In this document: in pieces, positions 285 through 33,020 of the stretch
How the letters are laid out: every line of letters begins with the position of its first letter
Numbering within the stretch: the stretch's first letter is position 1
Source of the DNA: a virus
Length of the DNA: 35,268 bases
Reading direction: 5' to 3' (one strand)
UHGV virus genome: UHGV-0140091
Position numbers and translations under genes: made by a program
The notes under the pieces: generated by a model
Told to the model about the DNA's origin: nothing
Seen by the model: the letters and a program-made list of their open reading frames with translations, nothing else
Database searches by the model: none

Positions 285-314
285 ACTATAAAGTAGTCAC
301 ATCTTAATGTCAAC
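285..314 (-). promoter_or_regulatory. sigma70-like promoter candidate reading leftwards out of the tRNA array
   Basis: Minus strand TTGACA (309-314), 18-nt spacer, TATAGT (285-290). Confidence 0.4.
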
Positions 315-328
315 AACTTTATTGAAAT

Positions 329-404
329 TGGTACTGGTAGGTGGAATCGAACCACCGATGTTCCCTTATCAGGGGAGTGTTATAACCTTCTTAACTATAC
401 CAGC
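329..404 (-). tRNA. tRNA-Ile (anticodon GAT)
   Basis: Minus-strand cloverleaf: acceptor GCTGGTA/TACCAGT, D-arm GTTA/TAAC, anticodon loop CTGATAA, T-arm GGTGG-TTCGATT-CCACC, encoded CCA. One C-A mismatch at the base of the anticodon stem. Confidence 0.75.
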
Positions 405-405
405 T

Positions 406-482
406 TGGAGGTTCAGATGGGAATCGAACCCACATTCATAGGGCTTATGAGACCCTTGCATTACCTTATCTGCGACTGAACC
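406..482 (-). tRNA. tRNA-Met (anticodon CAT; initiator vs elongator vs Ile-lysidine not resolved)
   Basis: Acceptor GGTTCAG/CTGAACC, anticodon stem AGGGT/GCCCT with loop CTCATAA, T-arm GTGGG-TTCGATT-CCCAT, encoded CCA; 1 nt from the neighbouring tRNA. Confidence 0.8.
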
Positions 483-486
483 ATAT

Positions 487-562
487 TGGTAGAAGTGGAG
501 GGATTCGAACCCATCGCCTGTCAGATTAAAAGTCTGCCGCATCACCATTCTGCTACACTTCC
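487..562 (-). tRNA. tRNA-Lys (anticodon TTT), non-canonical T-stem
   Basis: Acceptor GGAAGTG/CACTTCT, anticodon loop CTTTTAA, T-loop TTCGAAT, encoded CCA. T-stem has only 3 GC pairs plus two mismatches. Confidence 0.55.
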
Positions 563-577
563 ATTAAATTATCTTTG

Positions 578-700
578 TAGATAAGCTACCCAGACTTGCT
601 TAAGGTCTGTAGCGATGTGCCTTGTTGGGTTTAAATCTAGAATTTACCCTTTCACCCTTTGTGGTCGCATACTCACAGGTAAGCTTAATAACTTATCTAC
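578..700 (-). ncRNA. candidate structured small RNA (~123 nt) closed by a long terminal helix
   Basis: Perfect 9-bp terminal pairing GUAGAUAAG (700-692) with CUUAUCUAC (586-578), extendable with a bulge (AAGCU/AGCUU). No ORF. Starts 8 nt after a GGUCUGG helix strand, the same spacing seen before two tRNAs. Confidence 0.35.
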
Positions 701-708
701 AAAGATAA

Positions 709-846
709 TTACCAGACCGTTGTTTATCATCTTAAGTGCTACCATTACACCAACTCGACATCTGCCGAGTGAAGGAATCGAACCTTCGCCTTTTCTTTAC
801 CGGAGAAATAGATTGTTTAAGTTTTGCTGTAAACGGTCTTCTGTAA
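709..846 (-). ncRNA. candidate Y RNA-like RNA with circularly permuted tRNA-like domain
   Basis: 5' strand UUACAGAAGACC (846-835) and 3' strand GGUCUGGUAA (718-709) form a bulged helix. Between them, in order: T-arm GAAGG-TTCGATT-CCTTC (787-771), acceptor 3' strand ACTCGGC (770-764), 4-nt loop, acceptor 5' strand GTCGAGT (759-753), TG, D-arm GTGT-AATGGTA-GCAC (750-736). No anticodon arm. Confidence 0.5.
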
Positions 847-853
847 ATTTGTT

Positions 854-933
854 GAGCCAGACCAAGTTTTAAATTTTCAAAATTAAATTGGCTTGAAATT
901 TCATACGTACTTGCTGTAATTGGTCTTCTGCTC
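854..933 (-). ncRNA. bulged-helix RNA module, copy b
   Basis: GAGCAGAAGACC (933-922) pairs with GGUCUGGCUC (863-854): upper helix AGACC/GGUCU, internal loop AGA vs G, lower helix GAGC/GCUC. Ends 7 nt upstream of the Y RNA-like element. Confidence 0.4.
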
Positions 934-1016
934 CTTTAAAGAATACTCGTAAGAACTCTTTAAGGGAGGGGCTAAATAGCCCTCTCAAACATCATTTTGA
1001 AATACTTATTATAATT

Positions 1017-1094
1017 TGGCGGTTACGAAGGGACTCGAACCCTCATCATCTCCCGTGACAGGGGAGTATTTTAACCATATTAAACTACATAACC
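1017..1094 (-). tRNA. tRNA-Asp (anticodon GTC)
   Basis: Acceptor GGTTATG/CGTAACC, perfect anticodon stem CTCCC/GGGAG with loop CTGTCAC, T-arm GAGGG-TTCGAGT-CCCTT, encoded CCA. Confidence 0.8.
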
Positions 1095-1100
1095 TTTATT

Positions 1101-1188
1101 TGGTGTGCCGTGTAGGAGTCGAACCTACCGAGTCTCAATGACAAGGGATTTACAGTCCCCACCGCTACCATCTACGGGATAACGACAC
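1101..1188 (-). tRNA. tRNA-Tyr (anticodon GTA), class II with long variable arm
   Basis: Acceptor GTGTCGT/ACGGCAC, anticodon stem GGGGA/TCCCT with loop CTGTAAA, ~15-nt variable arm, T-arm GTAGG-TTCGACT-CCTAC, encoded CCA; 88 nt. Confidence 0.75.
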
Positions 1189-1197
1189 ATTTAAATT

Positions 1198-1274
1198 TGG
1201 CGGTTAGTCAGGGATTCGAACCCTGTGCCATTCGCTTAACAGGCGACCGCACATACCTTATGTGCTTCCTAACC
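1198..1274 (-). tRNA. tRNA-Asn (anticodon GTT)
   Basis: Acceptor GGTTAGG/ACTAACC (one mismatch at 7:66), D-stem GCAC/GTGC, anticodon loop CTGTTAA, T-arm CAGGG-TTCGAAT-CCCTG, encoded CCA. Confidence 0.7.
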
Positions 1275-1282
1275 TTAATACA

Positions 1283-1348
1283 TTGCCAGACCGTGTTTTT
1301 TCTTTTATCCGCAAAAAGTATTTTGTTGCTGAATACGGTCTTCTGCAA
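1283..1348 (-). ncRNA. bulged-helix RNA module, copy c
   Basis: UUGCAGAAGACC (1348-1337) pairs with GGUCUGGCAA (1292-1283). Lies 3 nt after the CCA of the upstream tRNA and 8 nt before the 5' end of tRNA-Asn. Confidence 0.4.
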
Positions 1349-1351
1349 AAT

Positions 1352-1428
1352 TGGAGGCGGGTGCAGGAGTCGAACCTGCCGATACCATGCTAATGAGACA
1401 TGTGAGACGCCCTTTCTCTATACCCGCA
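1352..1428 (-). tRNA. tRNA with anticodon CAT (Met/Ile2-type), non-canonical; possible pseudo-tRNA
   Basis: Perfect T-arm GCAGG-TTCGACT-CCTGC, acceptor 3' ACCCGCC + T + CCA, anticodon stem CATGT/GCATG with loop CTCATTA. But T1-C72 mismatch, A at position 8, U at position 37 and a 6-nt variable loop. Confidence 0.5.
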
Positions 1429-1437
1429 ATTCTTAAT

Positions 1438-1515
1438 GACCAGACCAAATCTCTTCTTTGTCCGATTTACCTTCAGATGAATAAGATTAAGTTTGCTGTA
1501 ATTGGTCTTCTGTCA
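1438..1515 (-). ncRNA. bulged-helix RNA module, copy d
   Basis: UGACAGAAGACC (1515-1504) pairs with GGUCUGGUCA (1447-1438). Lies 4 nt after the CCA of tRNA-Glu and 8 nt before the next tRNA. Confidence 0.4.
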
Positions 1516-1519
1516 AAAC

Positions 1520-1597
1520 TGGTGTTCCAGAAGGGATTTGAACCCTCAAATATCCACTTTGAAAGAGTGGTGACTTTACCATTTTGTCTACTGGAAC
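1520..1597 (-). tRNA. tRNA-Glu (anticodon TTC)
   Basis: Acceptor GTTCCAG/CTGGAAC, perfect anticodon stem CCACT/AGTGG with loop CTTTCAA, T-arm GAGGG-TTCAAAT-CCCTT, encoded CCA. Confidence 0.8.
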
Positions 1598-1604
1598 ATT
1601 AATT

Positions 1605-1681
1605 TGGTCTCTGTTGGAGGACTTGAACCTCCGGCCTTACCGCCCCAAACGGAACGCTCTACCAAGCTGAGCTAAACAGAG
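1605..1681 (-). tRNA. tRNA-Pro (anticodon TGG)
   Basis: Acceptor CTCTGTT/AACAGAG, D-arm GCTC-AGCTTGGTA-GAGC, anticodon loop TTTGGGG, T-arm GGAGG-TTCAAGT-CCTCC, encoded CCA. One T-T mismatch in the anticodon stem. Confidence 0.7.
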
Positions 1682-1707
1682 ATAAACTTTTCAAACTCTA
1701 TGTAACC

Positions 1708-1737
1708 ACTTTAACATTATTTTTTAGTGATTGTCAA
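1708..1737 (-). promoter_or_regulatory. sigma70-like promoter candidate upstream of the tRNA array
   Basis: Minus strand TTGACA (1737-1732), 18-nt spacer, TAAAGT (1713-1708). Confidence 0.4.
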
Positions 1738-1799
1738 GAACTTTTTTAAAATATTTTTCAGTATCTTAGAAAAGCTCTTATTTCGTTTCTATGTAGAAC

Positions 1800-1829
1800 A
1801 TATTAAAGGGTATCAAACACATTGTCAAT
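1800..1829 (-). promoter_or_regulatory. sigma70-like promoter candidate upstream of the tRNA array
   Basis: Minus strand TTGACA (1829-1824), 18-nt spacer, TAATAT (1805-1800); sits between the stop of the vWA gene and the first tRNA. Confidence 0.5.
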
Positions 1830-1846
1830 ACCCTTTTTAAAACTTT

Positions 1847-3261
1847 TTACCAGATATAACGGTCAATCATTACTGCTTTGAGCATTACGCTGATTGGGTC
1901 AAACTTCTCACCACCAAGCAGAGCTTTTAAAGTGGCTGGAGAGAAACCAGACACCATTGCTACACCGTTATCCTTAACAGATACTTCGCAAGTGCCATTA
2001 CGGTTTGCTAAGTACCAGAATACCAGTTGTGGCATCTCATATCCAGCTTTTTTGTACTTGCTCTGAATTGCTTCAAAGTTTGTACGACCGTTAGCTCCAT
2101 CAACCTGATTGAACTCCATATCAGAGAAGATGATAAGCTTACTTGGCATATCTTTCTGAGTCAAGTTGTTTCTTTTACCTGTCTCAAGAATACGGTCAAA
2201 AGCTGCTTGTAAGTTAGTTGAGCCATATTCAACGTGTCGCATCACCTGACGATGACGGTTTCGTAAATCACCACTCAGTTCAATGAAGTGAGGGTTTGTT
2301 GAATAAACCATCAACTCATTCTTAAAGCAACCTGTATTACGTTCTGCTACATACAATGCAAGTGAAACACCAATATCAAGAGCAGTAATTGAACCAAAAT
2401 TCACCCAAGACATTGAACTTGAAACATCAGACATACATAGAATGTTTTCACCCTCTGCCATCCAGTTTGGTAGTGCTTTCCACTGCTCATTAGCAACATC
2501 TGCATTACCATACTTAACAGATTTAATCACATCGTATGGGTAAACAGCACCAGCATTAATCTTAGCCTCACCCTTTGATAATGACTCGATGTAAGCTTTG
2601 TAGCGTTCTCCATCTTTACGGTTAAACAGTTTTTGGTAACGTGCAGCAGCAAGTGAAGGAATCTTACTGTAGTCAATCTTACCAAACTCATTAGCAGAGA
2701 TTTTTTGCTCAACTGTATCAGATAGTGCAGACAACAGTGTGCGGTACTCTTTCTCACTCAAGTTTGCAAACTTGCAGAAACGTTTTACAAACTGTTTGTG
2801 ACGTGGTTTTACTCGTGGTAACCACTTAGCTGCTAAACCTGCTGTTGCAGGGTCTAGTAATGCTGCTTCTAAATGTTTGAAGGCATCTGTCTCGAAACGA
2901 GTACCTACAAAGATTTTGAAGTCATCAAAGCGACCAAGCTCTGCAATCTTATCCATAATGCGAAGAACCTGCGTAGGTTCTAAAACTTTATCTTCAATCG
3001 CTTGAAGTAAAACAGTTCGGAAAGCTTTACGCTCACCATACCTTCTCGTACATCTCGCATATGCAGTAAAATACGAACTGCAACATCAACATCCTCATGC
3101 AAAGCTTTGTAGAACAGGTCTGGTAAGATTTCTACATTGCTACGGCTTGAACCAGCAGCTTTGTAAAAGTCTACAAGAGCAGACATTGATGAAGTATGGT
3201 TTGCAGCACCATTTTCAGTTCGACCTGCATGAAGGTGCGCATGTTTAAATAATTCGCTCAT
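1847..3261 (-). pseudogene. vWA-domain protein with N-terminal helical domain (DUF2828-like by recollection; Ro60/TROVE-like architecture), split by a -1 frameshift
   Basis: Two ORFs (2980-3261 and 1847-2956) overlap in different frames. The downstream frame stays open upstream of its ATG to ~3130 and reads YGERKAFRTVLLQAIEDKVLEPTQVLRIMDKI. Joining ...RDVREG to YGERK... at ~3038-3042 restores one ~470-aa protein. C-terminal part has the vWA MIDAS motif DVSSS. Confidence 0.6.
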
Positions 3262-3291
3262 ATTTTACTCTCTTCTCTCATTTGTTTGTTG

Positions 3292-3336
3292 GTGTGACAG
3301 ACTTTAGAGCAACTTTGTAGAGTCTGTCAACACCTT
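3292..3336 (-). promoter_or_regulatory. promoter candidate embedded in an inverted repeat, upstream of the vWA gene
   Basis: Minus strand TTGACA, 18-nt spacer, TAAAGT; the whole element lies inside a 13-bp inverted repeat GGTGTGACAGACT / AGTCTGTCA(A)CACC. Confidence 0.45.
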
Positions 3337-3342
3337 TTAAAA

Positions 3343-3714
3343 TTATTTTTTGAGAGTCGCTACAGCAGAGAACGTTGGTTTGTTATCTGTCTGAGACTGA
3401 CCACCATTATCAGGGGTCTTCTTAGTGTCTGCTGCAATCGCTTTCATCTCACCTGCTGAGTGAGTCATGATGGTTTTACCAGCCTCCATCATCGACTTCA
3501 GGTTTACATCGTCAGTCGTCAAACCGAACTCTGCAAGCTTAGCAGCATCCCTTGTAACAACCGCCTCAAACAACTTTGCAGCAAACTCAGCAGAATTATC
3601 AATGGTCAGTTGAGCTTTTACGAGTGAGCTTTTGTTACGAGAGCCTTTTGGTCTTCCAGATGGGTTTCCAGACTGGCCTTTTTTAAACTGGCCTTTGTTT
3701 GTTCTGTTTTTCAT
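3343..3714 (-). CDS. hypothetical protein with N-terminal GNPSGRPKG basic motif
   Basis: 123-aa ORF with AAGAGG ribosome-binding site upstream of the ATG. Confidence 0.6.
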   Translation of the reverse strand: MKNRTNKGQFKKGQSGNPSGRPKGSRNKSSLVKAQLTIDNSAEFAAKLFEAVVTRDAAKLAEFGLTTDDVNLKSMMEAGKTIMTHSAGEMKAIAADTKKTPDNGGQSQTDNKPTFSAVATLKK

Positions 3715-3729
3715 TGGTATGCCTCTTAT

Positions 3730-3810
3730 AAGACCTCTTAAAAGGCTTTTAAGATAAAAGATAGATATCCAGAAAGATATCTGTTTAAATAGCCTTTTTA
3801 GAGGAACCTT
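3730..3810. promoter_or_regulatory. divergent intergenic control region with dyad symmetries
   Basis: Inverted repeat AGATATC-N6-GATATCT (~3762-3781) and CCTCTTAAAAGGC / GCCTTTTTAGAGG; lies between the minus-strand block (3714) and the plus-strand block (3964). Confidence 0.35.
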
Positions 3811-3963
3811 TTAAGTTATCTTCTAAGTATTTATAAGCCTACACCTTGTCAAGTACTTTGTCAACAACTTTTTTAACTTGCAATAGTTCTTGACTTGTTG
3901 TATGGATTACTGTACCATCTTACTTAAAGCTGTAGGTCTGCCTTGTTCTACAAAGGAGACTTA

Positions 3964-4125
3964 ATGAGAAAATCAAATAAACCGAAGAAAGGTAAGAATA
4001 CCAATCACTGTAAGGAATCAAAAAGGGTAGAGTTAATCTACTATTCATCCTCTGAAATTGGTCTGTACCTGTTCTTTCAAAATTACAGAAGACAAGAGGA
4101 TTATCTATGTGTAGTTCCCAATTAG
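3964..4125 (+). CDS. small hypothetical basic protein
   Basis: Tracked ORF 3943-4125; AAGGAG ribosome-binding site sits just before the ATG at 3964, so the start is probably there. Confidence 0.35.
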   Translation: MRKSNKPKKGKNTNHCKESKRVELIYYSSSEIGLYLFFQNYRRQEDYLCVVPN

Positions 4126-4340
4126 AAATCGCAGATATTATAGATTTATATCAAACTGCAAAGAGTCATGGCTATATAACCTCAATTGGAAAGAATAGTC
4201 ACTATGATGCTTTGACTGGAATGTATTTCAGGGCAATGGCTCAATCTAGTGAACAACACTTAATGGTTTCTTCCAGTGAGTTTACTTCGTTTCTCTATTG
4301 CAGCAAAATTATAAACCGCAGGAGAACTGAAAAATGTTAA
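4107..4340 (+). CDS. hypothetical protein
   Basis: 77-aa ORF, overlaps neighbours by a few codons in operon fashion. Confidence 0.35.
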   Translation: MCSSQLEIADIIDLYQTAKSHGYITSIGKNSHYDALTGMYFRAMAQSSEQHLMVSSSEFTSFLYCSKIINRRRTEKC

Positions 4341-4924
4341 CAGTAAGTTTTAATTACAATAGTGATGGCTCTGTATCAATTAATTCACCATATGCAAATG
4401 ACCTGCTTAAAGAGCTAGTCAATCAGTGTGATAGAGGTCTTCACTATGTTCAAAATTCTTTTAAACAGAAGACTATTGCTAATAACTTGATGCGTGTAAC
4501 AGTGACGGCATCTAATCCAAATTATGACTTTGATAGTGAAAGTCCGTATTCATTAGTTGCGCTTGGAGAGAGCAGCCAATTCAAACTTGTTTGCCACGAC
4601 TCAGAAACATTCCTTAAGGTATTTTCCAACCTTATCCATAATAATAAGTACAGCTACGTTGATGGTAGTGTAAATTTCTATCCAGCAAACTATACATGTT
4701 TGTTGGTTGATAATATGAGAAAAAGTAAGCAAGAGCCTACGGAAATTTCATTTGATGTGAACTCTAGTCCAGATGCAGAAACAAGTAAGAACTTTGATAT
4801 GAGTTACGCATTGTCACTCAGTAAGAAATCCGAGTTCATTGATTATGTCAATGGATTTGGTTTTAAGTTTGATGAGAGTATGAATCTTAAAAAACTTAAG
4901 AACCTACTTAAGACCAAAGCTTAA
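4334..4924 (+). CDS. hypothetical protein
   Basis: 196-aa ORF in the plus-strand operon. Confidence 0.6.
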   Translation: MLTVSFNYNSDGSVSINSPYANDLLKELVNQCDRGLHYVQNSFKQKTIANNLMRVTVTASNPNYDFDSESPYSLVALGESSQFKLVCHDSETFLKVFSNLIHNNKYSYVDGSVNFYPANYTCLLVDNMRKSKQEPTEISFDVNSSPDAETSKNFDMSYALSLSKKSEFIDYVNGFGFKFDESMNLKKLKNLLKTKA

Positions 4925-4971
4925 GTGTGAATAGGGGCTTATGCCCCTTTAACTATTTATAAGGATATTTA

Positions 4972-6688: not shown

Positions 6689-6695
6689 TATCTTC

Positions 6696-6722
6696 ATAGG
6701 CTCCTTCGGGAGCCTTTTTTAT
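6696..6722 (+). terminator. rho-independent terminator
   Basis: GGCTCC-TTCG-GGAGCC hairpin followed by TTTTTT. Confidence 0.75.
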
Positions 6723-11329: not shown

Positions 11330-11340
11330 AATATCTTAAT

Positions 11341-11367
11341 AGCCTCCTTAATTGGGGGCTTTTTATT
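11341..11367 (+). terminator. rho-independent terminator closing the plus-strand block
   Basis: AGCCTCC...GGGGGCT hairpin followed by TTTTTATT. Confidence 0.65.
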
Positions 11368-11375
11368 GAGTAAAA

Positions 11376-12923
11376 TTTACGAAATTTATATTTTTTATAA
11401 AATTTTATCGGTTGTCCCAACCTCTGGGTCACCATCATATGTGAACAAAATATCTATCCTTCTTAACAACCTTTTTAATCTTACTCTCTATATAGTTATA
11501 TAGTACTATATAGTATCTTAGTAACTACCTAGTGGTCTTAATAGCCCCTCTGTATAATCCTTCTAACAAGCCCTCTAACAAGCCTTCTTAACAACCTATA
11601 CAATCACCTTAACCATCTCTCTATACACTCTTAGAAGCTCCTATACACCTCTTAATCTCTATGTCAGCTATGACACTCTCTATAGGTGTTCACTAGGTGC
11701 TACTAAGCCTCTATATAGACTGTTTTAACAAACTTAACAGGAATATCTTTACAGGCCTTATCTCACAAGGTCTAACACGGTACTAACAAGGTATCTTATA
11801 AGCCTGTTATCACCTGTATTTTAGAAAGACTGTATAGGTAATTATTCAGATTTTTAAAATTTTTATAAAATAGGACTATCAAGTCATTTTTTAGGGTCTT
11901 TGAAGGAACTGAAAAATATCTGTAGAAGATGTATATCTGCTTGGTAGCCCTTAACAGCTCCCTTACAAGTACTTTGCAAAATTTTAAAATATCCTTAACA
12001 ATCTCTTAACAGTTCTCACATCTTCTTAACAACTCTTCAAAGGTCTTAACAGATTCTTAACAGAACTAACAAGGACGTAACAGTTTCTTAACAGTTGATA
12101 CATAGTCTTTACAGAATCTTAACAGATGACTAACAAGAGCTAACAAGTTAATTTTTAAGAGTTATTTTGTTAAGATAATTAACAAGTTCCTAACAAGTGT
12201 TTAATCTTTTTAACAAGCTGTTAACATGGTCACTACTCTTTTCTTATCGTTCCCTTTGCTTCTTAGTGATTCTTTAAACATACCTCTTAAAAGCCCTCTA
12301 TAGCTCCTTGTAAGCTCTTTTAAGTCTCTTCCTAGTATTTACCCCCCAACTGTACAGATAGCTCTTTATAGGGCTTTACAGGAGCTTTAAAGGCTATGTC
12401 AAAGACTCTTACAAGGCTTTTACGTGGTCTTAACAGAGATTTAACAAGGGGCTAACAAGTTGCTAACAAGTCTCTAACAAGCATAACTATGTAGGGATTG
12501 TTAAGAAATTGTTAAGAAAATGTTAAGGGGGCTAGCATTTACGTAACTTTTAAGCAACTTTGAAGTAACTTTATAGCCCCTATAACATACTTTTAAGACA
12601 CTAACAAGCCCTTTTTAGATATTCACAAGATAGCTAATGAGATGATAAAGCTTATAACCTTATAAGATTCTTTTAAGCCTCTATAAAGCCCTGTAAAGAG
12701 CTTTTTAAGGTTGGTTAATGCAATCCCTTAAGTTAGGTTGATAAGGCTGTTATAGAGCTTTATAGAGCGTTTAAATGGGCCATCCCCTTTCTGGGGTTAT
12801 TGGCTTTTATTTAAGTTGATTTGATAAAAGGTTATAGAGTAGACTATAGAGTTATTGCTTTTAAGGTCTGATAAGATTCTGGAAAGGTGAGGGAAAGGGA
12901 TTGTATAAGGATTCAATAGACGT
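11376..12923. repeat. ORF-free island of short phased repeats
   Basis: ~1.55 kb with no ORF of 60 aa or more. Dozens of CTTAACA(A/G) / CTAACAAG heptamers, many 10-12 bp apart, plus a second family CT(C/T)TATAG / CTTTACAG. Bounded by convergent terminators. Confidence 0.6.
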
Positions 12924-12949
12924 AAAAAAGCCCCTTTAAATAGGGGCTG
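12924..12949 (-). terminator. rho-independent terminator closing the minus-strand block
   Basis: Minus strand AGCCCCT-ATTTAA-AGGGGCT hairpin followed by TTTTTT; a second hairpin GGGGCT-ATTT-AGCCCC lies at 12961-12976. Confidence 0.65.
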
Positions 12950-12986
12950 TTGAGGTATCTGGGGCTATTTAGCCCCGTTGCGTCGA

Positions 12987-13235: not shown

Positions 13236-13301
13236 TTTTGAATCTCCTAGTTTAAGGGTTTTATTTAGTGGGGAGGTTATCGCCTCCCGTTGATTAGTAA
13301 T
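13236..13301 (-). repeat. conserved intergenic repeat (PeSL-like), hairpin variant 1
   Basis: TTTTGAATCTCCTAGTTTAAGG core plus hairpin GGGAGG-TTATCG-CCTCCC and GTTGATT. Confidence 0.7.
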
Positions 13302-13565
13302 TTACTGCATGTTGGCGTATGTTGCAAGCCTTTTTTCGTTGTATTTTGTCAGAATCTCACAAGATAAAACATCATATTTTGTAACCGCTTTGCCTTTGTC
13401 GAGGTCAAAGAATCCGAACGCTTTACCGTCTTTGAATCCGACAACTTCGTAAGATTCTTTAATGATTTCACCATTGAACAAATCACTTTCGATGCGGTGG
13501 AATAATGCTACATCCTCTTTGTCGGTTGCAATTTGTAAAAGTGTGGTCAGTTCGACGTGTTCCAT
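13302..13565 (-). CDS. hypothetical small protein
   Basis: 87-aa ORF preceded by the conserved repeat. Confidence 0.6.
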   Translation of the reverse strand: MEHVELTTLLQIATDKEDVALFHRIESDLFNGEIIKESYEVVGFKDGKAFGFFDLDKGKAVTKYDVLSCEILTKYNEKRLATYANMQ

Positions 13566-13630
13566 TTTGAATCTCCAGTTTAGGATTTTATTTAGTGGGG
13601 AAGGTCATTCCCTCCCCGTTGATTGACAAT
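13566..13630 (-). repeat. conserved intergenic repeat (PeSL-like), variant 1
   Basis: Same core; hairpin GGGGAAGG-TCATT-CCCTCCCC; near-identical to the copies at 14724 and 18468. Confidence 0.7.
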
Positions 13631-14161
13631 TTACAGATTTTTGATTGTCTCGTCAATATCTTTTTCAATATCTTTTAAAGTTTTTTCTAAGTTCTTGATA
13701 TTGAACGTTAAACCTTCACCGAGAGTCTTATGGTGACCATTAGGTCTATGTTCATAGAGTTCGATTTCTTCCACATTGGATAAGTTTACCATCTCACCAT
13801 TTGCAGCATAGGCTATTGACACAGTATTTTCAGGTGCGTCGTAAAACTTGTTTAAGGACTTGATAGAACGTTCATAAGCCATTTTATAGCTGTTTAAAAG
13901 GTTTTTAACGTGGCTGTGAACGTTTTTACACTCATCTAAGTAAAGACCTAAAAACATCGGGAGAAGTTCCGCGACAGCTTGCATAAAGTGAGAGACTACA
14001 ACGGTTGCAACATTACGACGATGAACGTAATAAGCCCCGTTTTCTGATTTGGTAATGGTTGCAAAGTGTACCCCATTACAACGAAATTCATAGGTATCTT
14101 TAACAGGTTTAGACATTACATTATTTGAACGAATATAGTTGATAGCTTTGAACTTGTTCAT
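13631..14161 (-). CDS. hypothetical protein
   Basis: 176-aa ORF preceded by the conserved repeat. Confidence 0.6.
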   Translation of the reverse strand: MNKFKAINYIRSNNVMSKPVKDTYEFRCNGVHFATITKSENGAYYVHRRNVATVVVSHFMQAVAELLPMFLGLYLDECKNVHSHVKNLLNSYKMAYERSIKSLNKFYDAPENTVSIAYAANGEMVNLSNVEEIELYEHRPNGHHKTLGEGLTFNIKNLEKTLKDIEKDIDETIKNL

Positions 14162-14233
14162 TTTAGAATCTCCTAGTTTAAGGACTTTACTTAGTAGGGA
14201 GGTTATCCCTCCCGTTGATTAGTAATTTACTTG
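14162..14233 (-). repeat. conserved intergenic repeat (PeSL-like), variant 1
   Basis: Core plus hairpin GGGAGG-TTATC-CCTCCC. Confidence 0.7.
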
Positions 14234-14381
14234 TTTTGATAGCTGATTGCAAGCAATTTTTTAAGTTTATCTATAAAGAATCTTTTAAGTAAATCCCTTT
14301 TAGATAAACCCCCTCGAACAAATGTACTATTGTCAAGGGGTATCGTCAAGTAATTTTTTAAAGTTTTTTGTAAGTTATTGA

Positions 14382-14723
14382 TTAACTGATGAATATTTTT
14401 TCAGGTTTTACATAGCTGATACGCTGATTTTTTAGTAGGCTATCCCATAACAAGGCGGCAATGTGCCCATATCCGGCCTCACGCAGCCCCTTCATCGTTT
14501 CAACTCGACTCTCAAAACGATTTGCGTAATACTCGCTATTAAGTGTCGTTTTGTTCCCTTCGTTATCTGTATGGATGATTTGCATCACTTGAAAGGGGCT
14601 GACATCCTCGCCTTTGTTCCACTGCTCAAAGTATTTTAGGCACTGCATAGGTGACATCTTATCACTTACTTGAGTTGACCAAGATGAATCTTCTTTATCG
14701 GTAATTACAGTTACATAAGCCAT
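14382..14723 (-). CDS. hypothetical protein
   Basis: 113-aa ORF preceded by the conserved repeat. Confidence 0.6.
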   Translation of the reverse strand: MAYVTVITDKEDSSWSTQVSDKMSPMQCLKYFEQWNKGEDVSPFQVMQIIHTDNEGNKTTLNSEYYANRFESRVETMKGLREAGYGHIAALLWDSLLKNQRISYVKPEKIFIS

Positions 14724-14800
14724 TTTAGAATCTCCTAGTTTAAGGACTTTATTTAGTGGGGAAGGTCATTCCCTCCCCGTTGATTGACAATTTACAGACT
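14724..14800 (-). repeat. conserved intergenic repeat (PeSL-like), variant 1
   Basis: Core plus hairpin GGGGAAGGTCATTCCCTCCCC. Confidence 0.7.
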
Positions 14801-14814
14801 TTTATCAGGCTTGT

Positions 14815-15048
14815 CTAGTCTTTTTCAATGATAATTTCATATTGACCATCGACACTGTCAAAATAGACGCCGTCTTCATCTTCTGTCTTAAAGTAGCATT
14901 GAATATCATCACTGGCGGGATAGTCTTGTCTTGCTATCTGGCAAACTTGAATAGCATTTTCTTTACTCCCTGTAAACTCCTCAAGCCCTTTAAAATCACA
15001 TGAATGACCATTACAAATGGAAAGGATGAGATAAATGGTTGTAAGCAT
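14815..15048 (-). CDS. small hypothetical protein with hydrophobic N-terminus (possible signal peptide)
   Basis: 77 aa starting MLTTIYLILSICNGHSC; GAGGG ribosome-binding site; preceded by a different hairpin (GGCCC-TTTAC-GGGCC) rather than the conserved repeat. Confidence 0.5.
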   Translation of the reverse strand: MLTTIYLILSICNGHSCDFKGLEEFTGSKENAIQVCQIARQDYPASDDIQCYFKTEDEDGVYFDSVDGQYEIIIEKD

Positions 15049-15111
15049 GATTTAAGCCCTCTAAATGGCCCTTTACGGGCCTTAAGTTGGAAGTTGGTGT
15101 CTTTGTACTGA

Positions 15112-15675
15112 TTAACCTAAAAAGTCTTTTAAATTGCGTTCTGTGATGTTTGCCGTGATTTTATCCAGCAGGTCACAAAACACGGAACTATCACCGCTAT
15201 TCTGTACAATTTTCGCCATACTTAACAAATCATCGTCAATATAGCCTAAATTGCGGTTAGTTGCATCTGGTACAAAGAAAGGCGCATACATCGCACTAAA
15301 TTTCGTCGAGTGAAGGCCAATAATCCAATCTTTATCAAAGTGTCCGGTAAAGCTGGCGATATCGCTCATGTTGTCACAAGAATAATCATCCTCTAGCTCT
15401 TCCTCTGGGATATCCATCTCAATGACAATTACGTCCTGCGTTTCCATTTGGAAAGCTGCCGTAATAAGCCCAGATTCTAAAGCGTTTTGAATGCAGCGTT
15501 CACGAATGTAAGAATCTTCCTCATCTTCCAGACATTCCGTTTTGATAATCTTGTTCATTGGGTAAACGTAGAAACAATCATCCATGTATGAGCAGTTCCA
15601 GATTCCTTCCGGCTTGTCGCCACCATTCAGCAGGTTTACAAAGTTTTTGAGGGTAGTTCCGTGATAGCATTTCAT
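15112..15675 (-). CDS. hypothetical acidic protein
   Basis: 187-aa ORF preceded by the conserved repeat. Confidence 0.6.
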   Translation of the reverse strand: MKCYHGTTLKNFVNLLNGGDKPEGIWNCSYMDDCFYVYPMNKIIKTECLEDEEDSYIRERCIQNALESGLITAAFQMETQDVIVIEMDIPEEELEDDYSCDNMSDIASFTGHFDKDWIIGLHSTKFSAMYAPFFVPDATNRNLGYIDDDLLSMAKIVQNSGDSSVFCDLLDKITANITERNLKDFLG

Positions 15676-15764
15676 TTTTGAATCTCCAGTTTAGGATTTA
15701 GTGGTAAAGCTCTTTATCTGGGGCTTACTTTATCGAACTATAAGCCCCTTGTAAAGTACTTTAT
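15676..15764 (-). repeat. conserved intergenic repeat (PeSL-like), variant 2
   Basis: Core plus AGCTCTTTATCTGGGGCTTA...TAAGCCCCTTGTAAAGTACTTTATT. On the minus strand TTTACA-17 nt-TAAAGT overlaps the hairpin. Confidence 0.7.
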
Positions 15765-16010
15765 TTAACTTTTTTTTGAGAAAATTAGTTTAACTGCAAC
15801 TGTAGGAATCTCGTCAGCGGTTGTAACCAGCATTACTTTTTGAGTGACCAACTTATAACCGTTCTTTGCAGCGTATGCGGTAAAACGGTTGACATTGTAA
15901 CTATAAGTTTTTGGTGTGTTGTCTGGCATGTGGTAAAGAAAAGGTTTACCCAAGTTTTCTTCTTGTGTCAATAGTCGGCAGGTATCAGGGATATTGAAAT
16001 AGTTCATCAT
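15765..16010 (-). CDS. hypothetical small protein
   Basis: 81-aa ORF preceded by the conserved repeat. Confidence 0.55.
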   Translation of the reverse strand: MMNYFNIPDTCRLLTQEENLGKPFLYHMPDNTPKTYSYNVNRFTAYAAKNGYKLVTQKVMLVTTADEIPTVAVKLIFSKKS

Positions 16011-16101
16011 TTTTTAATCTCCTAGTTTAAGGACTGTGTAAAGCTCTTTATCTGGGGCTTAAGATATCAGCTTTTAAGCCCCTTGTAAAGTACTTTATTA
16101 C
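16011..16101 (-). repeat. conserved intergenic repeat (PeSL-like), variant 2
   Basis: Variant-2 copy with hairpin GGGGCTTAA-GATATCAGCTTT-TAAGCCCC. Confidence 0.7.
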
Positions 16102-16299
16102 TTAATTTTTGACAACTTTTAAAACTGCAAGATAACCTAAGCAATAAGAATCACCGAAGAGAGTTCTACCCATGAAAGAATCCTCTTTGATATCCTTTGC
16201 AGTGACAGTTTTTTCTACGCCGTGGGAAAGGACTACATCACCAACTTTGATATCTTTGATGTGTGTTGTTTCAATGGTTAAGCCGTTAATAATAGCCAT
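16102..16299 (-). CDS. hypothetical small protein
   Basis: 65-aa ORF preceded by the conserved repeat. Confidence 0.5.
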   Translation of the reverse strand: MAIINGLTIETTHIKDIKVGDVVLSHGVEKTVTAKDIKEDSFMGRTLFGDSYCLGYLAVLKVVKN

Positions 16300-16370
16300 T
16301 TTAGAATCTCCTAGTTTAAGGACTTTATTTAGTAGGGAGGTTATTGCCTCCCCGTTGATGTGTAATTTAA
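16300..16370 (-). repeat. conserved intergenic repeat (PeSL-like), variant 1
   Basis: Core plus hairpin GGGAGG-TTATTG-CCTCCCC. Confidence 0.7.
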
Positions 16371-16388
16371 TCTATCTAAAAATCAGTG

Positions 16389-24296: not shown

Positions 24297-26663
24297 TTAA
24301 TCGTAAATTGTAGTCCCTTCTGGAACACACTTCACATCAAAGCCTAAAAACTTACTCACTTCGATAGGTGATACTTTATTCCAATCTAAGTGTGAAAGCA
24401 AGAAGTTTTCTTGTTTTCTTTTTGAAAGATAGTTTGTCAGCTTGATAACCATGCGGTCACCTGCTTTCTTAATCTTTTTGTACAGTTTTGTGTCATTATC
24501 AAGGCATGACTTCAAATCCTGAAGAACACTGATAGTGTAAGTGTATGCAAACGGTGCAGCCACATACTGAATCTTACCAAACATTGCCTCAACAGCATCT
24601 TCATTCCCTTCTAAGAAGATTGTCTTAATAGTATCCCTTGAATAACAATACCCGCGAGAAATCTTCCTGTTATTAAACGTAAAGTTTCTGGCAATAATCC
24701 AACTGCTTGTAAGGTCAAGGACACCATTCATATAGATACGCGTCATATATCTGTTATGGTTAATCCAGTGAACATCAGTTAAGCTGTCGTTCAAGAGTTT
24801 CTCATCTACTTCAATCCAATCTTCTGGTATCTTTTTCCAATTTGCTTTTCGGAAAACATAGACTGTCTTACCTGTAACATTAGCAACTGACTTAGCTACA
24901 TCTTCTGGAGATGAGCAAAAACATCTACCATCAACTGTATCACCAACTGCCTTAATGTAAAGCTGAGGCTCTTCAATTGTATCAAAGTCCTCTGAAACCT
25001 CTTTATAGGAAGCTACACCTTCTGCTGGAACAGCTTTCCAGAGTTTTACAACACCTCTTACAGCTTCTTTACGCTGATAATGGTGTTCCTTCTCAGACAT
25101 CTTCACAATCTTTAACAAGCTTTTATCAAGTTTGTGTAGATTGACTAAGTCATCTAGCTCTTTTTCAGTCGAGAATACAAATACAATACCATTGTATCTG
25201 TGAAACAGACTAGACTCACTGGCATAGTCTCGACATGCACCACGCAAGATTTGATTGCGTCCTACAGTCTTCTCAGTACCGTTTTTATTGCGACGGTCAT
25301 TTATAACAAACAAAAACTGTTCAATTTGGCTTTTACGCATTGCGCCAAAGATATTGAACATGCTTGCCTCTTGAGTGTAGGAAAGCGATGTTGCACGAAT
25401 CTTACTCTCTAAAGAGTTGAATTTGACATAAGCAACTGGGTCATAAAGATAATCTACTTTAGGGATATTGTTCCCGTTCCTATCAACCTTAATATTGCCT
25501 TTGCCGTCACGTTCATAAATGACTGAGCCGTCTTCTGCGTAGATAATTCCACGACGAATGTTTAGTAATTCTTCTTCCAGAGAATCAAGCTTAACACCTC
25601 CCCACTCTAGCTTTGGACACACAACATTAAACATCTCTCGTGAGTTTAAGCGTAACTCAGCATAAGCCTGTGCAGCATCCATGAGTGTAGGTTGACTATT
25701 AACTTTCTTGATAACATCCTTTGTAATTGCTTCAGTTATCTTTTTAGTAGCCTCGATGATAACATTTTTTGTCGTGTCATTCATCTGCAATGCTTCACGA
25801 GAAGCTGCAATAGCAACTGAACCAATAGGCATGTAGATGTTTACAAGGTCTATGCTCCTGCGGAAAAATTCTGGTAATACTTTGAAGAAATCATCACCAA
25901 GTAATGCCTCCATATTAACTGGGTAGGCAATATTACCCATAACCACGTTAAACTCTGTTCTATTGCTGCTTGAACGCCAGCTATGCTTATGAGTCATGGC
26001 ATCATAGACACCTTCTTCACGAGCAATCACATCCATATCTGCTAATATATCATTATACTCCACATTACTCTCTGGTTTTACAGCAAAGTATGAGTATACA
26101 TTACCAGCCTCTTCAAAGAACTTTGAAATACGGTGGTCAGCAACTGCCACACGTACAGCTAAACCATTAGGTTCTTTTGTTGGGTTAGTGGTCAGTTTAG
26201 TTACTTGAGGGATACCATTCTCAAGATAAACAGAGTACTTATTAACAACACCGTCAACATAGCTAGACACTGTGAATGACTGAGCAATTGCAAATGGTGA
26301 TTTTGAGCCGATACCCATTGCACCAATGTAGTCATTAGAGTCATTCTTCGTAGAAGCCCCATAGTTTAGGTACAAACTCATAACTTTATCATGAGTTAAT
26401 CCAGTTCCAAAATCACGAACTTCAAAGTAAGGCTCAAAACGAGTAGGCAAATGCACATGGAACGGGATGTTCTCTTTTCCAGCCTCTTTCTGAGCATCTA
26501 CTGCGTTACATGACAGTTCACGAATCACTGCCCTTTCTTTAAAGGTATATACACCAGAACTCAAAAGGCTGAACATTTCAGGTGTCATTGTAATCTGTGC
26601 TTGAGACGTCTCTAAAGAAGTTGAACTCTTAATCACTTCTGCGTGGTCGTTTACCATGCGCAT
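24297..26663 (-). CDS. rIIA: rIIA-like GHKL-family ATPase-domain protein
   Basis: 788 aa with N-terminal Bergerat-fold motifs ELSCNAVDA, DFGTGL and GAMGIGSKS; size and adjacency to a ~370-aa partner match the T4 rIIA/rIIB pair. Confidence 0.55.
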   Translation of the reverse strand: MRMVNDHAEVIKSSTSLETSQAQITMTPEMFSLLSSGVYTFKERAVIRELSCNAVDAQKEAGKENIPFHVHLPTRFEPYFEVRDFGTGLTHDKVMSLYLNYGASTKNDSNDYIGAMGIGSKSPFAIAQSFTVSSYVDGVVNKYSVYLENGIPQVTKLTTNPTKEPNGLAVRVAVADHRISKFFEEAGNVYSYFAVKPESNVEYNDILADMDVIAREEGVYDAMTHKHSWRSSSNRTEFNVVMGNIAYPVNMEALLGDDFFKVLPEFFRRSIDLVNIYMPIGSVAIAASREALQMNDTTKNVIIEATKKITEAITKDVIKKVNSQPTLMDAAQAYAELRLNSREMFNVVCPKLEWGGVKLDSLEEELLNIRRGIIYAEDGSVIYERDGKGNIKVDRNGNNIPKVDYLYDPVAYVKFNSLESKIRATSLSYTQEASMFNIFGAMRKSQIEQFLFVINDRRNKNGTEKTVGRNQILRGACRDYASESSLFHRYNGIVFVFSTEKELDDLVNLHKLDKSLLKIVKMSEKEHHYQRKEAVRGVVKLWKAVPAEGVASYKEVSEDFDTIEEPQLYIKAVGDTVDGRCFCSSPEDVAKSVANVTGKTVYVFRKANWKKIPEDWIEVDEKLLNDSLTDVHWINHNRYMTRIYMNGVLDLTSSWIIARNFTFNNRKISRGYCYSRDTIKTIFLEGNEDAVEAMFGKIQYVAAPFAYTYTISVLQDLKSCLDNDTKLYKKIKKAGDRMVIKLTNYLSKRKQENFLLSHLDWNKVSPIEVSKFLGFDVKCVPEGTTIYD

Positions 26664-32866: not shown

Positions 32867-33020
32867 TTTAACTTGCCTCTTAATTCACAATAAGAGAGTC
32901 CTAAAAAGAACCCTAGTAAGATAGAACCTATGAACAACCCAATAATACTCTCTGCCATATCTAACATCCAATAAAAAAGGTGATGTAAGCCTATCAAGAC
33001 TCACACCACCATGTCAAGTT

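Follow-up and report, generated by a model that had tools for sequence, protein, structure and literature searches.

The window analysed here, the whole 35,268-nucleotide stretch of virus genome UHGV-0140091, is a segment of a Felixounavirus (Felix O1/wV8-like) E. coli phage, 95-97% identical to Felixounavirus genomes. Its positions 1-8000 are covered to at least 80% by 229 of 307 records; in the region 13-18.6 kb just one of 298 records reaches that coverage. On the minus strand, a DUF5681 gene is followed by a gene for a Ro60-like RNA-binding protein and then by an array of stable RNAs (Table 1). The Ro60-like gene is split in the window by a 1-bp deletion in a G-run around position 3037, a frameshift relative to phage vB_EcoM_ASO1A (ASO1A). 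The AlphaFold model of its product has a pLDDT of 83, and the top 11 PDB matches returned by Foldseek were all Ro60/TROVE proteins, matched over the full length. Sequence searches against the PDB and NCBIfam gave no match, the Ro60 identity having come from the fold search alone. In Rfam scans, run at the gathering threshold and at E<=5, only the tRNAs were recovered, with no match for the hairpins described below, the leaders or the Y-like RNAs.

Felix O1-like phages lack an RNA polymerase gene. In Felix O1, transcripts of ORF41/42 have been found by RT-PCR; they peak at 25 min and are placed in the 'middle' class, not the obvious expectation for a strong, constitutive sigma-70 promoter with an UP element.

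Table 1. Genes, stable RNAs, putative promoters and stem-loops of the window
Feature	Position	Strand	Details
DUF5681 gene	3343..3714	minus	Pfam PF18932, ORF table; stop TAA 3345..3343
Ro60-like (TROVE-like + vWA) gene	1847..3261	minus	Pfam DUF2828 + DUF7788; stop TAA 1849..1847
Stable-RNA array	329..1681	minus	nine tRNAs, four Y-RNA-like elements (Y-like stems, tRNA-like core)
Y-RNA-like elements	1515..1436, 1348..1282, 933..853, 846..708	minus
Putative promoter P_Ro	3301..3330	minus	-35 TTGACA (3330..3325), 18-nt spacer, -10 TAAAGT (3306..3301); predicted start A3295 or A3293
UP-element-like A/T-rich tract of P_Ro	3331..3352	minus	caaaaaataattttaaaaggtg; holds DUF5681 stop codon
Inverted repeat around P_Ro	3291..3334	minus	arms GGTGTTGACAGAC (3334..3322) and GTCTGTCACACC (3302..3291), one bulged T
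Putative promoter P_tRNA1	1800..1828	minus	-35 TTGACA (1828..1823), 17-nt spacer, -10 TAATAT (1805..1800); predicted start A1794 or A1792
UP-like A/T-rich tract of P_tRNA1	1829..1850	minus	gtaaaaagttttaaaaagggta; includes Ro60-like stop codon
Hairpin at P_tRNA1	1805..1836	minus	AAAGGGTAT...ATACCCTTT; overlaps -35 and spacer; 10 nt past Ro60-like stop
Putative promoter P_tRNA2	1708..1737	minus	-35 TTGACA (1737..1732), 18-nt spacer, -10 TAAAGT (1713..1708); predicted start A1703 or A1701, ~20 nt ahead of tRNA-Pro (1681)
UP element of P_tRNA2	1739..1760	minus	tgaaaaatattttaaaaaagtt; 15/15 specified UP-consensus positions
Putative promoter, Felix O1 'P45'	285..313	minus	TTGACA-N17-TATAGT; past tRNA-Ile; PMC3185647; annotated in MZ726791
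Promoter-like site, Felix O1 'P41'	3836..3864	minus	TTGACA-N17-TAGGCT; upstream of DUF5681 gene; second TTGACA at 3852..3847; PMC3185647
Five variant-2 promoter/stem-loop cassettes	18078..18050, 17698..17670, 17094..17066, 16089..16061, 15755..15727	minus	TTTACA-N17-TAnnnT
Putative promoter behind gene 24297..26663	24262..24291	minus	TTGACA-N18-TAGAAT; hairpin GGGGCTTCAAAGCCCC within spacer, z = -2.42

Candidate promoters of the Ro60-like gene and the tRNA array

Three minus-strand sites with a -35 TTGACA, noted in a preliminary description of this DNA and here called P_Ro, P_tRNA1 and P_tRNA2, are present, and P_Ro and P_tRNA2 do have the same -10 TAAAGT. This hexamer also recurs, as described, in the variant-2 repeat, where it is the -10 of two of the five cassettes (15755..15727 and 18078..18050). 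The 18-nt spacer said to be common to all three holds for P_Ro and P_tRNA2, but the third site has 17 nt; its hexamers stand, whilst its span, previously 1800-1829, is corrected to 1828..1800.

The window-wide motif search that had been proposed gave counts above chance. Two minus-strand matches to TTGACA-N18-TAAAGT were found against 0.12 expected, a number reached by none of 100 shuffles. With the pattern relaxed to TTGACA-N17/18-TAnnnT there were 13 in the window against 1.74 expected, again reached in 0 of 100 shuffles, and these 13 sites are mostly intergenic and co-oriented with the downstream gene. The pattern AAARKNNTTGACA was matched seven times, with 0.37 matches expected.

Upstream of the -35 elements lie A/T-rich tracts that resemble UP elements. 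The consensus used for scoring them (~-59 to -38), reportedly that of Estrem et al. 1998, is a literature consensus and not one supplied by a tool. Background scores in the window are 7.1 +/- 1.5 of 15, with at least 13 at 0.1% and at least 12 at 0.4% of random positions. P_tRNA2 fits the full consensus, and its TTTTAAAAAA is invariant in relatives; the P_Ro tract fits at 13 of the 15 specified positions, and that of P_tRNA1, likewise invariant in relatives, at 11. The spacer of P_tRNA2 additionally carries an extended -10 TG (1716..1715).

The -35 is a six-of-six TTGACA at all three sites and does not vary among some 35 relatives, which represent at least four genera: that of P_Ro at all Felixounavirus, Suspvirus, Mooglevirus and Kolesnikvirus loci, and that of P_tRNA1 in the Felixounavirus/Suspvirus/Mooglevirus-type loci examined. 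The sequence AAAAG(G/A)TG adjoining the P_Ro -35 is also unchanged in relatives. At all three sites the -10 keeps A2 and T6 of TATAAT, with spacers of 17-18 nt. P_tRNA1 reads TAATAT in the loci above, the sole exception being TAAGAT in one metagenomic relative. Orthologues of P_Ro have TAAAGT, TAGAGT or TAAATT with a spacer of 18 or 17 nt, and Mooglevirus-type relatives have TATAGT at P_tRNA2, one relative having a 17-nt spacer there. TAAAGT was considered as a phage-specific -10 signature and rejected on the strength of these orthologues. Nor can it be called unusual, as it had been, since it keeps T1, A2, A4 and T6 of TATAAT. The view of TTGACA-N18-TAAAGT as a distinctive recurrent signature likewise gives way to one of spacer and -10 drift within the ordinary sigma-70 range, seen both among the sites and among their orthologues.

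P_Ro is kept in Kolesnikvirus too, without the hairpin described below and ahead of another gene, an HNH-like one that replaces the Ro60-like gene between the same two promoters. The P_Ro orthologue of ASO1A is already annotated as 'promoter' in GenBank MZ726791. Motif enrichment, near-consensus UP elements, a -35 that stays the same from genus to genus, fitting position and orientation, and this earlier in silico annotation of one site together make it very probable that all three are promoters used by the host sigma-70 RNA polymerase. P_Ro would then drive the Ro60-like gene, and P_tRNA1 and P_tRNA2 the tRNA/Y-RNA-like array.

Stem-loops overlapping the candidate promoters

The near-perfect inverted repeat that had been reported around P_Ro is real, although its limits are 3334..3291 and not 3336..3292. 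It starts 9 nt past the DUF5681 stop codon. The 5' arm takes in the -35, whilst the 3' arm covers 3302..3301, the last two positions of the -10, and roughly +1 to +5. On folding, the sense RNA gives a hairpin of up to 16 pairs with one bulge, at -18.2 kcal/mol (z = -4.45; 0 of 200 shuffles as stable). It would be carried at the 3' end of a read-through transcript from the DUF5681 gene. There is no U-tract on the sense strand, the next bases being AACAAACAAAUG, and the hairpin is thus not a canonical intrinsic terminator.

Pairing is kept in 93.8% of stem cells across 15 distinct relatives, and comparable hairpins are found in Moogle (z = -4.41) and in relative L035 (z = -5.89), with none in Kolesnikvirus. 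A covariation test on the same 15 relatives found no pair changed on both sides, and shuffles scored equally; the case for the hairpin is therefore one of conservation, stability and analogy. Its sense-strand MFE holds at -15.0 to -22.5 kcal/mol across the 15 variants and the antisense MFE ranges from -10 to -24 kcal/mol; the antisense strand folds at least equally well in most Felixounavirus variants. Assignment of the hairpin to a strand by MFE is no more than suggestive.

The promoter had been described as embedded in this way only once. Instead, P_tRNA1, the five variant-2 cassettes and the promoter at 24291..24262 also overlap hairpins, the fold z-scores of the promoter-overlapping stem-loops being -4.45, -3.41, -3.41, -3.95 and -2.42. 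The hairpin at P_tRNA1 (-12.6 kcal/mol, z = -3.41) is terminator-like according to the scan, with a partly U-rich tail, UUUAAUAUGUUCU, that makes it borderline as a rho-independent terminator. Its arms are constant in relatives apart from one wobble change, whilst the loop varies. The Felix O1 orthologue is listed as the rho-independent terminators t42/t43 (PMC3185647, Table 2).

The variant-2 cassette corresponds to the 57-bp member of the 57-bp and 39-bp direct repeats that Felix O1 carries (PMC3185647). Each has a 9-bp GGGG.../...CCCC stem over the spacer and the -10, and in the cassettes the promoter as a whole is enclosed by a three-segment fold of 6+5+9 = 20 pairs. Pairing is complete in 10 distinct copies (90 of 90 stem cells); positions 7-9 of the stem show double compensatory changes, and there is a U.G pair valid on the sense strand only, whilst the -10 stays TAnnnT. 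Relative to the window, ASO1A has a 954-nt insertion with duplicated cassettes at both edges.

Hairpins are confined to promoters that have the end of a coding gene just upstream. The promoter at 24291..24262 directly follows a stop codon; P_tRNA2 (z = -0.50) and the promoter at 313..285, which follow non-coding or tRNA sequence, gave no hairpin on folding. The upstream stop codons sit within the UP-like tracts at 3345..3343, at 1849..1847, in the variant-2 cassettes and at 24291. Given this recurrent class of promoter-overlapping stem-loops right behind an upstream stop codon, the repeat at 3334..3291 is best read as a combined 3'-end element and promoter. The earlier proposal of structure-dependent control, or of a combined processing and promoter site, is thus supported in part, by a conserved, stable hairpin and a recurrent class, but not by significant covariation.

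Proposed arrangement and competing explanations

We consider it fairly probable that the three sites are host sigma-70 promoters and that the inverted repeats are 3' stem-loops of the preceding gene's RNA, in an architecture of the type known as PeSL (promoter-early stem-loop). Each promoter would have the consensus hexamer TTGACA as its -35, a moderate -10 of the form TAnnnT, a spacer of 17 or 18 nt between them, and an A/T-rich UP element close to consensus that serves the alpha subunits of RNA polymerase. P_Ro would start transcription of the Ro60-like gene, and P_tRNA1 and P_tRNA2, in tandem, that of a stable-RNA operon comprising nine tRNAs and four RNAs of Y-RNA-like type, without the inverted repeats being involved in promoter recognition. 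The stem-loops would form in sense RNA reading through from the upstream gene, 9-10 nt past its stop codon, and act there as a terminator, an attenuator or a 3'-end-defining hairpin. The same bases would thus be the -35, spacer or -10 of the next promoter in DNA and the 3' hairpin of the previous message in RNA, a double use that may be favoured because the intergenic space is tiny. RNA from the embedded promoter would have its 5' end within the 3' arm or beyond it, and hence be unable to form the hairpin. Sequence features, motif enrichment, conservation, stem compensation in the repeated cassettes and the fold of the Ro60-like protein are observed; start sites, termination or processing activity, and timing are predictions in this scheme. 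The promoters are functional-looking but ordinary, and the mechanism is not of a new kind.

Nuclease processing leads to a related scheme, which we regard as rather unlikely: the long interrupted hairpins would be sites at which RNase III or another nuclease cuts polycistronic read-through RNA, as in T7, and would not be terminators. The 16 pairs and single bulge of 3334..3291, the 20 pairs in three segments of the variant-2 cassettes and the absence of a U-tract after these stems are consistent with it. A typical RNase III substrate has about two helical turns of mostly paired double-stranded RNA, however, against which the stems here are short and interrupted, and PeSLs, the only tested analogues, behaved as a terminator or attenuator (PMC2839356). 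The hairpins could also be plus-strand intrinsic terminators of antisense transcription, with the A-tract of the UP element read as a U-tract. Folding of plus-strand RNA from 3286-3342 indeed gives -23.8 kcal/mol (z = -5.24), with UUUUAAAAUUAUUUUUU next in the sequence, and the complement of the 1836..1805 hairpin is t43 of the Felix O1 authors. Such a role is nevertheless improbable: within 1-3300 there is no plus-strand gene or convincing plus-strand promoter upstream, antisense stability is lost (-10 to -12 kcal/mol in Moogle, L035 and L036) where sense stability is kept, and the U.G pairs of variant-2 become C-A mismatches on the plus strand.

An operator in DNA could account for the 'middle' timing if a dimeric phage or host regulator, bound to GACAGAC/GTCTGTC half-sites in 3334..3291, switched the promoter off or on. 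At least three genera conserve the arms, which flank the -35 and the start site, and ORF42 mRNA peaks at 25 min and not at 5 min. Against this, the half-sites diverge asymmetrically (GACAGGT versus GACAGAC in Mooglevirus; GG..CC to GG..TC to GA..TC), in changes that retain RNA pairing and not half-site identity, and one arm contains a bulge. TGACAG...CTGTCA is found just once more in the window, within a gene, and the other promoter-overlapping hairpins are unrelated in sequence, so that there is no shared operator motif; we think an operator unlikely. Least credible, and in our judgement very improbable, is that the sites are chance matches or pure terminators, with the downstream genes served by read-through from the divergent promoter region near 3864. 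A generic consensus scan was hardly richer in promoter-like sites than shuffled sequence (55 versus 51.2), and a search of the literature on Felix O1-like phages found no start-site, RNA-seq or 3'-end mapping data. Chance is nevertheless at odds with the excess of the strict 13-site pattern, with UP-element matches in the top 0.1-0.4% of positions, with an invariant -35 beside a variable spacer, and with the retention of the promoter in Kolesnikvirus, before a different gene and without the hairpin.

Host promoters combined with 3' stem-loops, the reading preferred here, would provide a concrete transcription map for a poorly understood part of the Felix O1-like phages, which are widely used in Salmonella and E. 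coli typing and biocontrol. The published 'terminators' and 'direct repeats' of these genomes would be composite promoter/stem-loop units, which would explain why the Felix O1 authors were at a loss over the way in which transcription gets past the many terminators. The PeSL concept would also reach beyond T4-type phages, and very strong, compact promoters bear on cloning toxicity and phage engineering.

A further-reaching possibility, put forward tentatively and doubtful as it stands, is that Felix O1-like phages independently evolved or acquired a PeSL-type system in which promoter DNA doubles as an insulating terminator or processing hairpin. Were this so, every small gene, and likewise the Ro60/Y-RNA/tRNA module, would form a transcription unit that is complete in itself and can be exchanged, with the cassettes also serving as recombination sites at which genes are shuffled among Ounavirinae; the variant-2 -10 hexamer would be co-encoded within a covarying stem. 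The Kolesnikvirus swap of the Ro60-like for the HNH-like gene fits such shuffling. In a bolder variant, the Ro60-like protein may bind the hairpin enclosing P_Ro for autoregulation.

Comparison with known systems

PeSLs are composite promoter-terminator cassettes of T4-type phages (Arbiol et al. 2010, PMC2839356; Comeau et al. 2014, PMC4122927). In these, a stem-loop cut lacZ read-through like a strong terminator, and termination or attenuation and in vivo promoter activity have been shown only for the PeSLs of RB49/phi1 (PMC2839356). The elements described here share with them an upstream stop codon in an A/T-rich tract, sigma-70-like -35 and -10 boxes about 17 nt apart, followed by a Shine-Dalgarno sequence and ATG, and a stem-loop placed between the two boxes, across the -35 or the -10, or farther downstream. 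In both, the stems tolerate G-T pairs, and repeated copies lie between small ORFs of a mosaic region with cassette-bounded indels, which is here the region 13-18.6 kb. The nt-1 stem-loop consensus A3-4G3-loop-C3T3-4 resembles AAAGGG...CCCTTT at 1836..1805, and in Vibrio phage nt-1, which bears PeSLs, a Ro60-like orthologue is preceded by TTTATA-[ACGGGTTTAAACCCGT]-TATAAT. The likeness is one of sequence architecture, and as the genome belongs to the Ounavirinae (Felix O1-like) and not to the T4-type phages (Straboviridae), the elements are 'PeSL-like' and not members by descent. The two focal elements occur once each, in a segment that is conserved rather than hyperplastic, and the 3334..3291 hairpin, with arms on both sides enclosing the whole promoter, falls outside the five listed PeSL subclasses.

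P_tRNA1 and P_tRNA2 recall rrnB P1/P2 of E. coli in being two tandem sigma-70 promoters, 91 bp apart, before a stable-RNA operon. As in E. coli rRNA and tRNA promoters, there is a full or near-full UP match upstream of the -35 and a short leader before the first tRNA. They differ from rrnB P1 in combining a consensus -35 with a weak -10, the reverse of the arrangement there, and in having no G+C-rich discriminator; unlike rrn promoters, P_tRNA1 overlaps a hairpin.

The early region of T7 contains intergenic RNase III processing hairpins, interrupted and without U-tracts, between consecutive genes. The stem-loops here are likewise interrupted, intergenic and without U-tracts between consecutively transcribed phage genes, but those of T7 are longer and do not overlap promoters. 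Hairpin promoters of the N4 type, with a 5-7 bp stem and a 3-nt loop read by a virion RNA polymerase, were also considered. With stems of 9-16 bp and loops of 8-19 nt here, such DNA-hairpin promoters and cruciform control were rejected on account of the long loops and the lack of a phage RNA polymerase.

Some of these elements already figure in the annotation of Felix O1 (PMC3185647), in which 1836..1805 is t42/t43, 313..285 is P45 and the 57-bp repeat is variant-2. That annotation and MZ726791 treat promoters, terminators and repeats separately. New in relation to both are the consensus -35 inside t42, the reading of the 57-bp repeat as a promoter in a covarying stem, and the presence of two promoters before tRNA-Pro.

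Probable promoters of the Ro60-like gene and tRNA array

Positions 1-8000 match 307 phage records by megablast, the best being Felixounavirus genomes at 95-97% identity (vB_EcoM-Ro111lw, wV8 and E. coli O157 typing phages). The locus is laid out in the table.

Features of the locus and hairpin sites, in minus-strand order where they belong to the locus
Feature	Position or length	Strand	Remark
Divergent control region			first in the locus; upstream of DUF5681 gene
DUF5681 gene	3714..3343	-	
Gap to 'vWA' gene	81 nt		
Focal hairpin	3334..3291		after end of coding gene
P_Ro	3330..3301	-	promoter
'vWA' gene	3261..1847	-	
Gap to tRNA-Pro	164 nt		
Second hairpin	1836..1805		after end of coding gene
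P_tRNA1	1828..1800	-	promoter
P_tRNA2	1737..1708	-	promoter
tRNA-Pro	begins 1681	-	eight further tRNAs after
Y-RNA-like elements (four)	1515..1436, 1348..1282, 933..853, 846..708	-	among the tRNAs
Variant-2 cassettes (five)	15727..18078	-	hairpin after end of coding gene
Further hairpin	24291..24262		after end of coding gene

The preliminary description gave three promoters here a common TTGACA and 18-nt spacer, two of them with a TAAAGT -10. TTGACA-N18-TAAAGT is indeed found at P_Ro and P_tRNA2 (2 matches against 0.12 expected) and TTGACA is present at all three, but the shared spacer fails at P_tRNA1, which reads TTGACA-N17-TAATAT. TAAAGT also recurs, as claimed, in the variant-2 repeat: two cassettes, 15755..15727 and 18078..18050, use it as their -10, and TATCTT or TAAGAT takes its place in the remaining three. 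The proposed motif search of the whole sequence returned 13 TTGACA-N17/18-TAnnnT sites against 1.74 expected, a number reached by none of 100 shuffles. These are mostly intergenic and oriented with the next gene. The extended motif AAARKNNTTGACA occurs seven times (0.37 expected), and an extended -10 TG is present at P_tRNA2. A loose generic consensus scan of the window was uninformative, with 55 promoter-like sites against 51 in shuffles.

The full E. coli UP-element consensus, nnAAAWWTWTTTTnnAAAAnnn, is attributed to Estrem et al. 1998. It has 15 specified positions; in the 22 nt 5' of each -35, P_Ro matches at 13 of them, P_tRNA1 at 11 and P_tRNA2 at all 15. Background matching is 7.1 +/- 1.5, and at least 13 is reached at 0.1% of random positions. 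In silico, the promoter reading has good support, and the original observation was largely correct. A literature search found no start-site mapping for Felix O1-like phages.

Across loci from Felixounavirus, Suspvirus, Mooglevirus, metagenomic relatives and Kolesnikvirus, the -35 is unchanged at all three promoters and the -10 varies solely inside TAnnnT. TAAAGT becomes TAGAGT or TAAATT in P_Ro orthologues and TATAGT in those of P_tRNA2, while TAATAT becomes TAAGAT in one P_tRNA1 orthologue. Spacers are 17 or 18 nt long, with bases that vary freely. TAAAGT with N18 is therefore no signature. The idea of a special architecture is not supported, as -10 and spacer drift within the ordinary sigma-70 range; judged by sequence comparison, the combination is just one state of a predicted ordinary sigma-70 promoter. 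Erwinia phage SunLIRen keeps two of the promoters, TTGACA-N17-TAAATT behind the DUF5681 gene and TTGACA-N17-TATGAT ahead of tRNA-Pro, even though the intervening gene differs (HNH-like).

In the record of phage vB_EcoM_ASO1A (ASO1A; MZ726791) the P_Ro orthologue is labelled 'promoter, 2 mismatches'. P41 and P45 of the Felix O1 paper correspond to window positions 3864 and 313; Felix O1 lacks its own RNA polymerase, and RT-PCR placed ORF41 and ORF42 in a class with a 25-min peak (PMC3185647). The control region with the ~120-nt DUF5681 leader (3715..3965) is 94% identical in three genera, against ~81% in flanking genes. It contains nested inverted repeats (AAAAGGCT...AGCCTTTT and AGATATC...GATATCT) and two TTGACA boxes 12 nt apart, and may act as a regulatory hub or form a structured leader.

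The 'vWA' gene encodes DUF2828 and DUF7788 domains. An intact orthologue was modelled (pLDDT 83), and the top 11 PDB matches of the model are Ro60/TROVE proteins over the full length, that of Thermus phage phiLo among them. By fold, the product is a Ro60/TROVE-like RNA-binding protein. Relatives carry it as one ORF of 471 aa. In the window, loss of 1 bp from a GGG run near 3037 breaks the gene into two ORFs (93 and 369 aa), which reflects a recent pseudogene or else an error in sequencing. The Y-RNA-like elements adjoin this gene and are conserved in Felixounavirus, Suspvirus and Mooglevirus. All four are closed by a conserved bulged stem, NNNC-AGA-AGACCR...YGGUCU-G-GNNN, and an Rfam scan gave no match to them. 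The last (846..708) has three parts inside this stem: a T-arm, an acceptor-like stem-loop that shows compensatory changes in relatives, and a D-arm. YrlA-type Y RNAs have this layout (PMC4201824). With the Ro60-like gene, these elements and the tRNAs downstream, the three promoters thus head one module.

Hairpins overlapping the promoters

The inverted repeat described around P_Ro is real, if displaced by 1-2 nt, with arms GGTGTTGACAGAC (3334..3322) and GTCTGTCACACC (3302..3291) and one bulged T. As sense RNA it folds at -18.2 kcal/mol (z = -4.45). It is not the only such case, as had been thought: P_tRNA1 too lies in an inverted repeat, AAAGGGTAT/ATACCCTTT (z = -3.41), whose orthologue appears in the Felix O1 paper as rho-independent terminators t42 and t43, the internal TTGACA going unremarked (PMC3185647). 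Fold z-scores show no hairpin at P_tRNA2 (z = -0.5), nor at the promoter that follows tRNA-Ile (z = -0.6). Hairpins occur where a coding gene ends just 5', which links them with how the upstream message ends and not with promoter recognition.

In 15 distinct variants of the focal hairpin, 93.8% of stem cells are paired. One pair appears as G-C, G.U and A-U; elsewhere A-U changes to G.U or C-G to U.G. No double-sided pair changes occur among these variants and column shuffles score equally well, so covariation is not demonstrated for this hairpin. The sense-strand fold is -15.0 to -22.5 kcal/mol in all variants and the antisense fold -10 to -24 kcal/mol. In Mooglevirus (z = -4.41) and L035 (z = -5.89) the -10 is taken into a longer inner stem, and in Kolesnikvirus the hairpin is absent (z = +1.0).

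It seems somewhat probable that these are strong sigma-70 promoters with UP elements, and that the hairpins are sense-RNA 3'-end elements of the upstream message overlapping the next promoter. In that message the hairpin would act as a terminator, attenuator or processing hairpin. RNA started at the embedded promoter would begin inside or past the 3' arm, and so could not form it. That the repeat is instead a DNA operator, an antisense terminator or an RNase III site, or that the sites have no promoter function, is in each case unlikely.

On the plus strand, a mirror promoter-like site (GTGACA-N18-TAGAGT, 3294..3323) points into the DUF5681 gene. It exists because the inverted repeat is palindromic and, lacking a UP-like tract, is probably its by-product. 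In a further promoter/stem-loop overlap elsewhere, TTGACA-N18-TAGGCT (32988..33017, minus strand) overlaps a canonical terminator, GGTGGTGTGAGTCT...AGGCTTACATCACC then TTTTTT (region 32867..33020), with a true U-tract, directly 3' of the stop codon of a 714-aa gene.

Repeated cassettes and other non-coding regions

Ten distinct variant-2 copies, from the window, ASO1A and Citrobacter phage Maleficent, all carry TTTACA-N17-TAnnnT plus a 9-bp stem (90/90 cells paired). Double compensatory changes occur at positions 7 (T-A/A-T), 8 (A-T/T-A) and 9 (A-T, T-A, C-G, T.G), and position 5 is U.G in seven copies, pairing on the sense strand only. The -10 hexamer lies partly in the 3' arm, so that the same bases meet two constraints. 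These alignments make the cassettes the clean test of the putative promoter/stem overlap. With outer helices, ~20 interrupted pairs surround the entire promoter, paralleling the focal hairpin.

The 13-18.6 kb region is covered to at least 80% by one of 298 records, against 229 of 307 for 1-8000. ASO1A has a 954-nt, three-gene insertion between duplicated cassettes, which its record annotates as promoter plus terminator. 'Variant-1' cassettes, in gaps within 13236..18560 (minus strand), have promoter-like boxes (-10 TAAATT or TAATAT), a leader hairpin GGGGAGG...CCTCCCC and a conserved SD region, AAACTAGGAGATTC. In ASO1A they are annotated as 'promoter' then immediately 'terminator' before each gene, and two copies flank the 954-nt insertion.

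Between convergent late and early gene blocks lie 1.6 kb without a long ORF (11330..12980), with at least six copies of a repeat containing TCTTAACAG, spaced 31 nt (11987..12437); these could be an origin/iteron array or regulator binding sites. Upstream of the early block, 488 nt of non-coding sequence (18468..18955) contain a C-rich tract, CCCCTCTCCCCCTCTTACTCCCCCTCTCCC, a strong terminator-like hairpin and a 39-nt repeat with GAAAAATCATTTT (minus-strand reading), present twice.

Comparison with the PeSLs of T4-type phages

Parts of this promoter, terminator and repeat set are already annotated in earlier records. The sole novelty is that these annotations form one composite design, like the promoter-early stem-loops (PeSLs) of T4-type phages, in an Ounavirinae phage; overall the finding is of modest interest. 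In PeSLs, an upstream stop codon inside an A/T-rich tract is followed by sigma-70-like -35 and -10 boxes; the stem-loop, with G-T pairs, lies between the boxes, over either of them, or up- or downstream, and an SD and ATG follow. One PeSL stem-loop cut read-through like a strong terminator, and the promoters were too strong for intact cloning (PMC2839356; PMC4122927). Vibrio phage nt-1, one of the phages in which PeSLs were defined, has TTTATA-[ACGGGTTTAAACCCGT]-TATAAT ahead of its 'vWA' orthologue. Unlike the PeSL hosts, the phage of the window is not T4-type, and both focal elements are single-copy; they are therefore called PeSL-like. The elements of the window share the PeSL anatomy, and the evolutionary hallmark of PeSLs is also seen in the 13-18.6 kb region.
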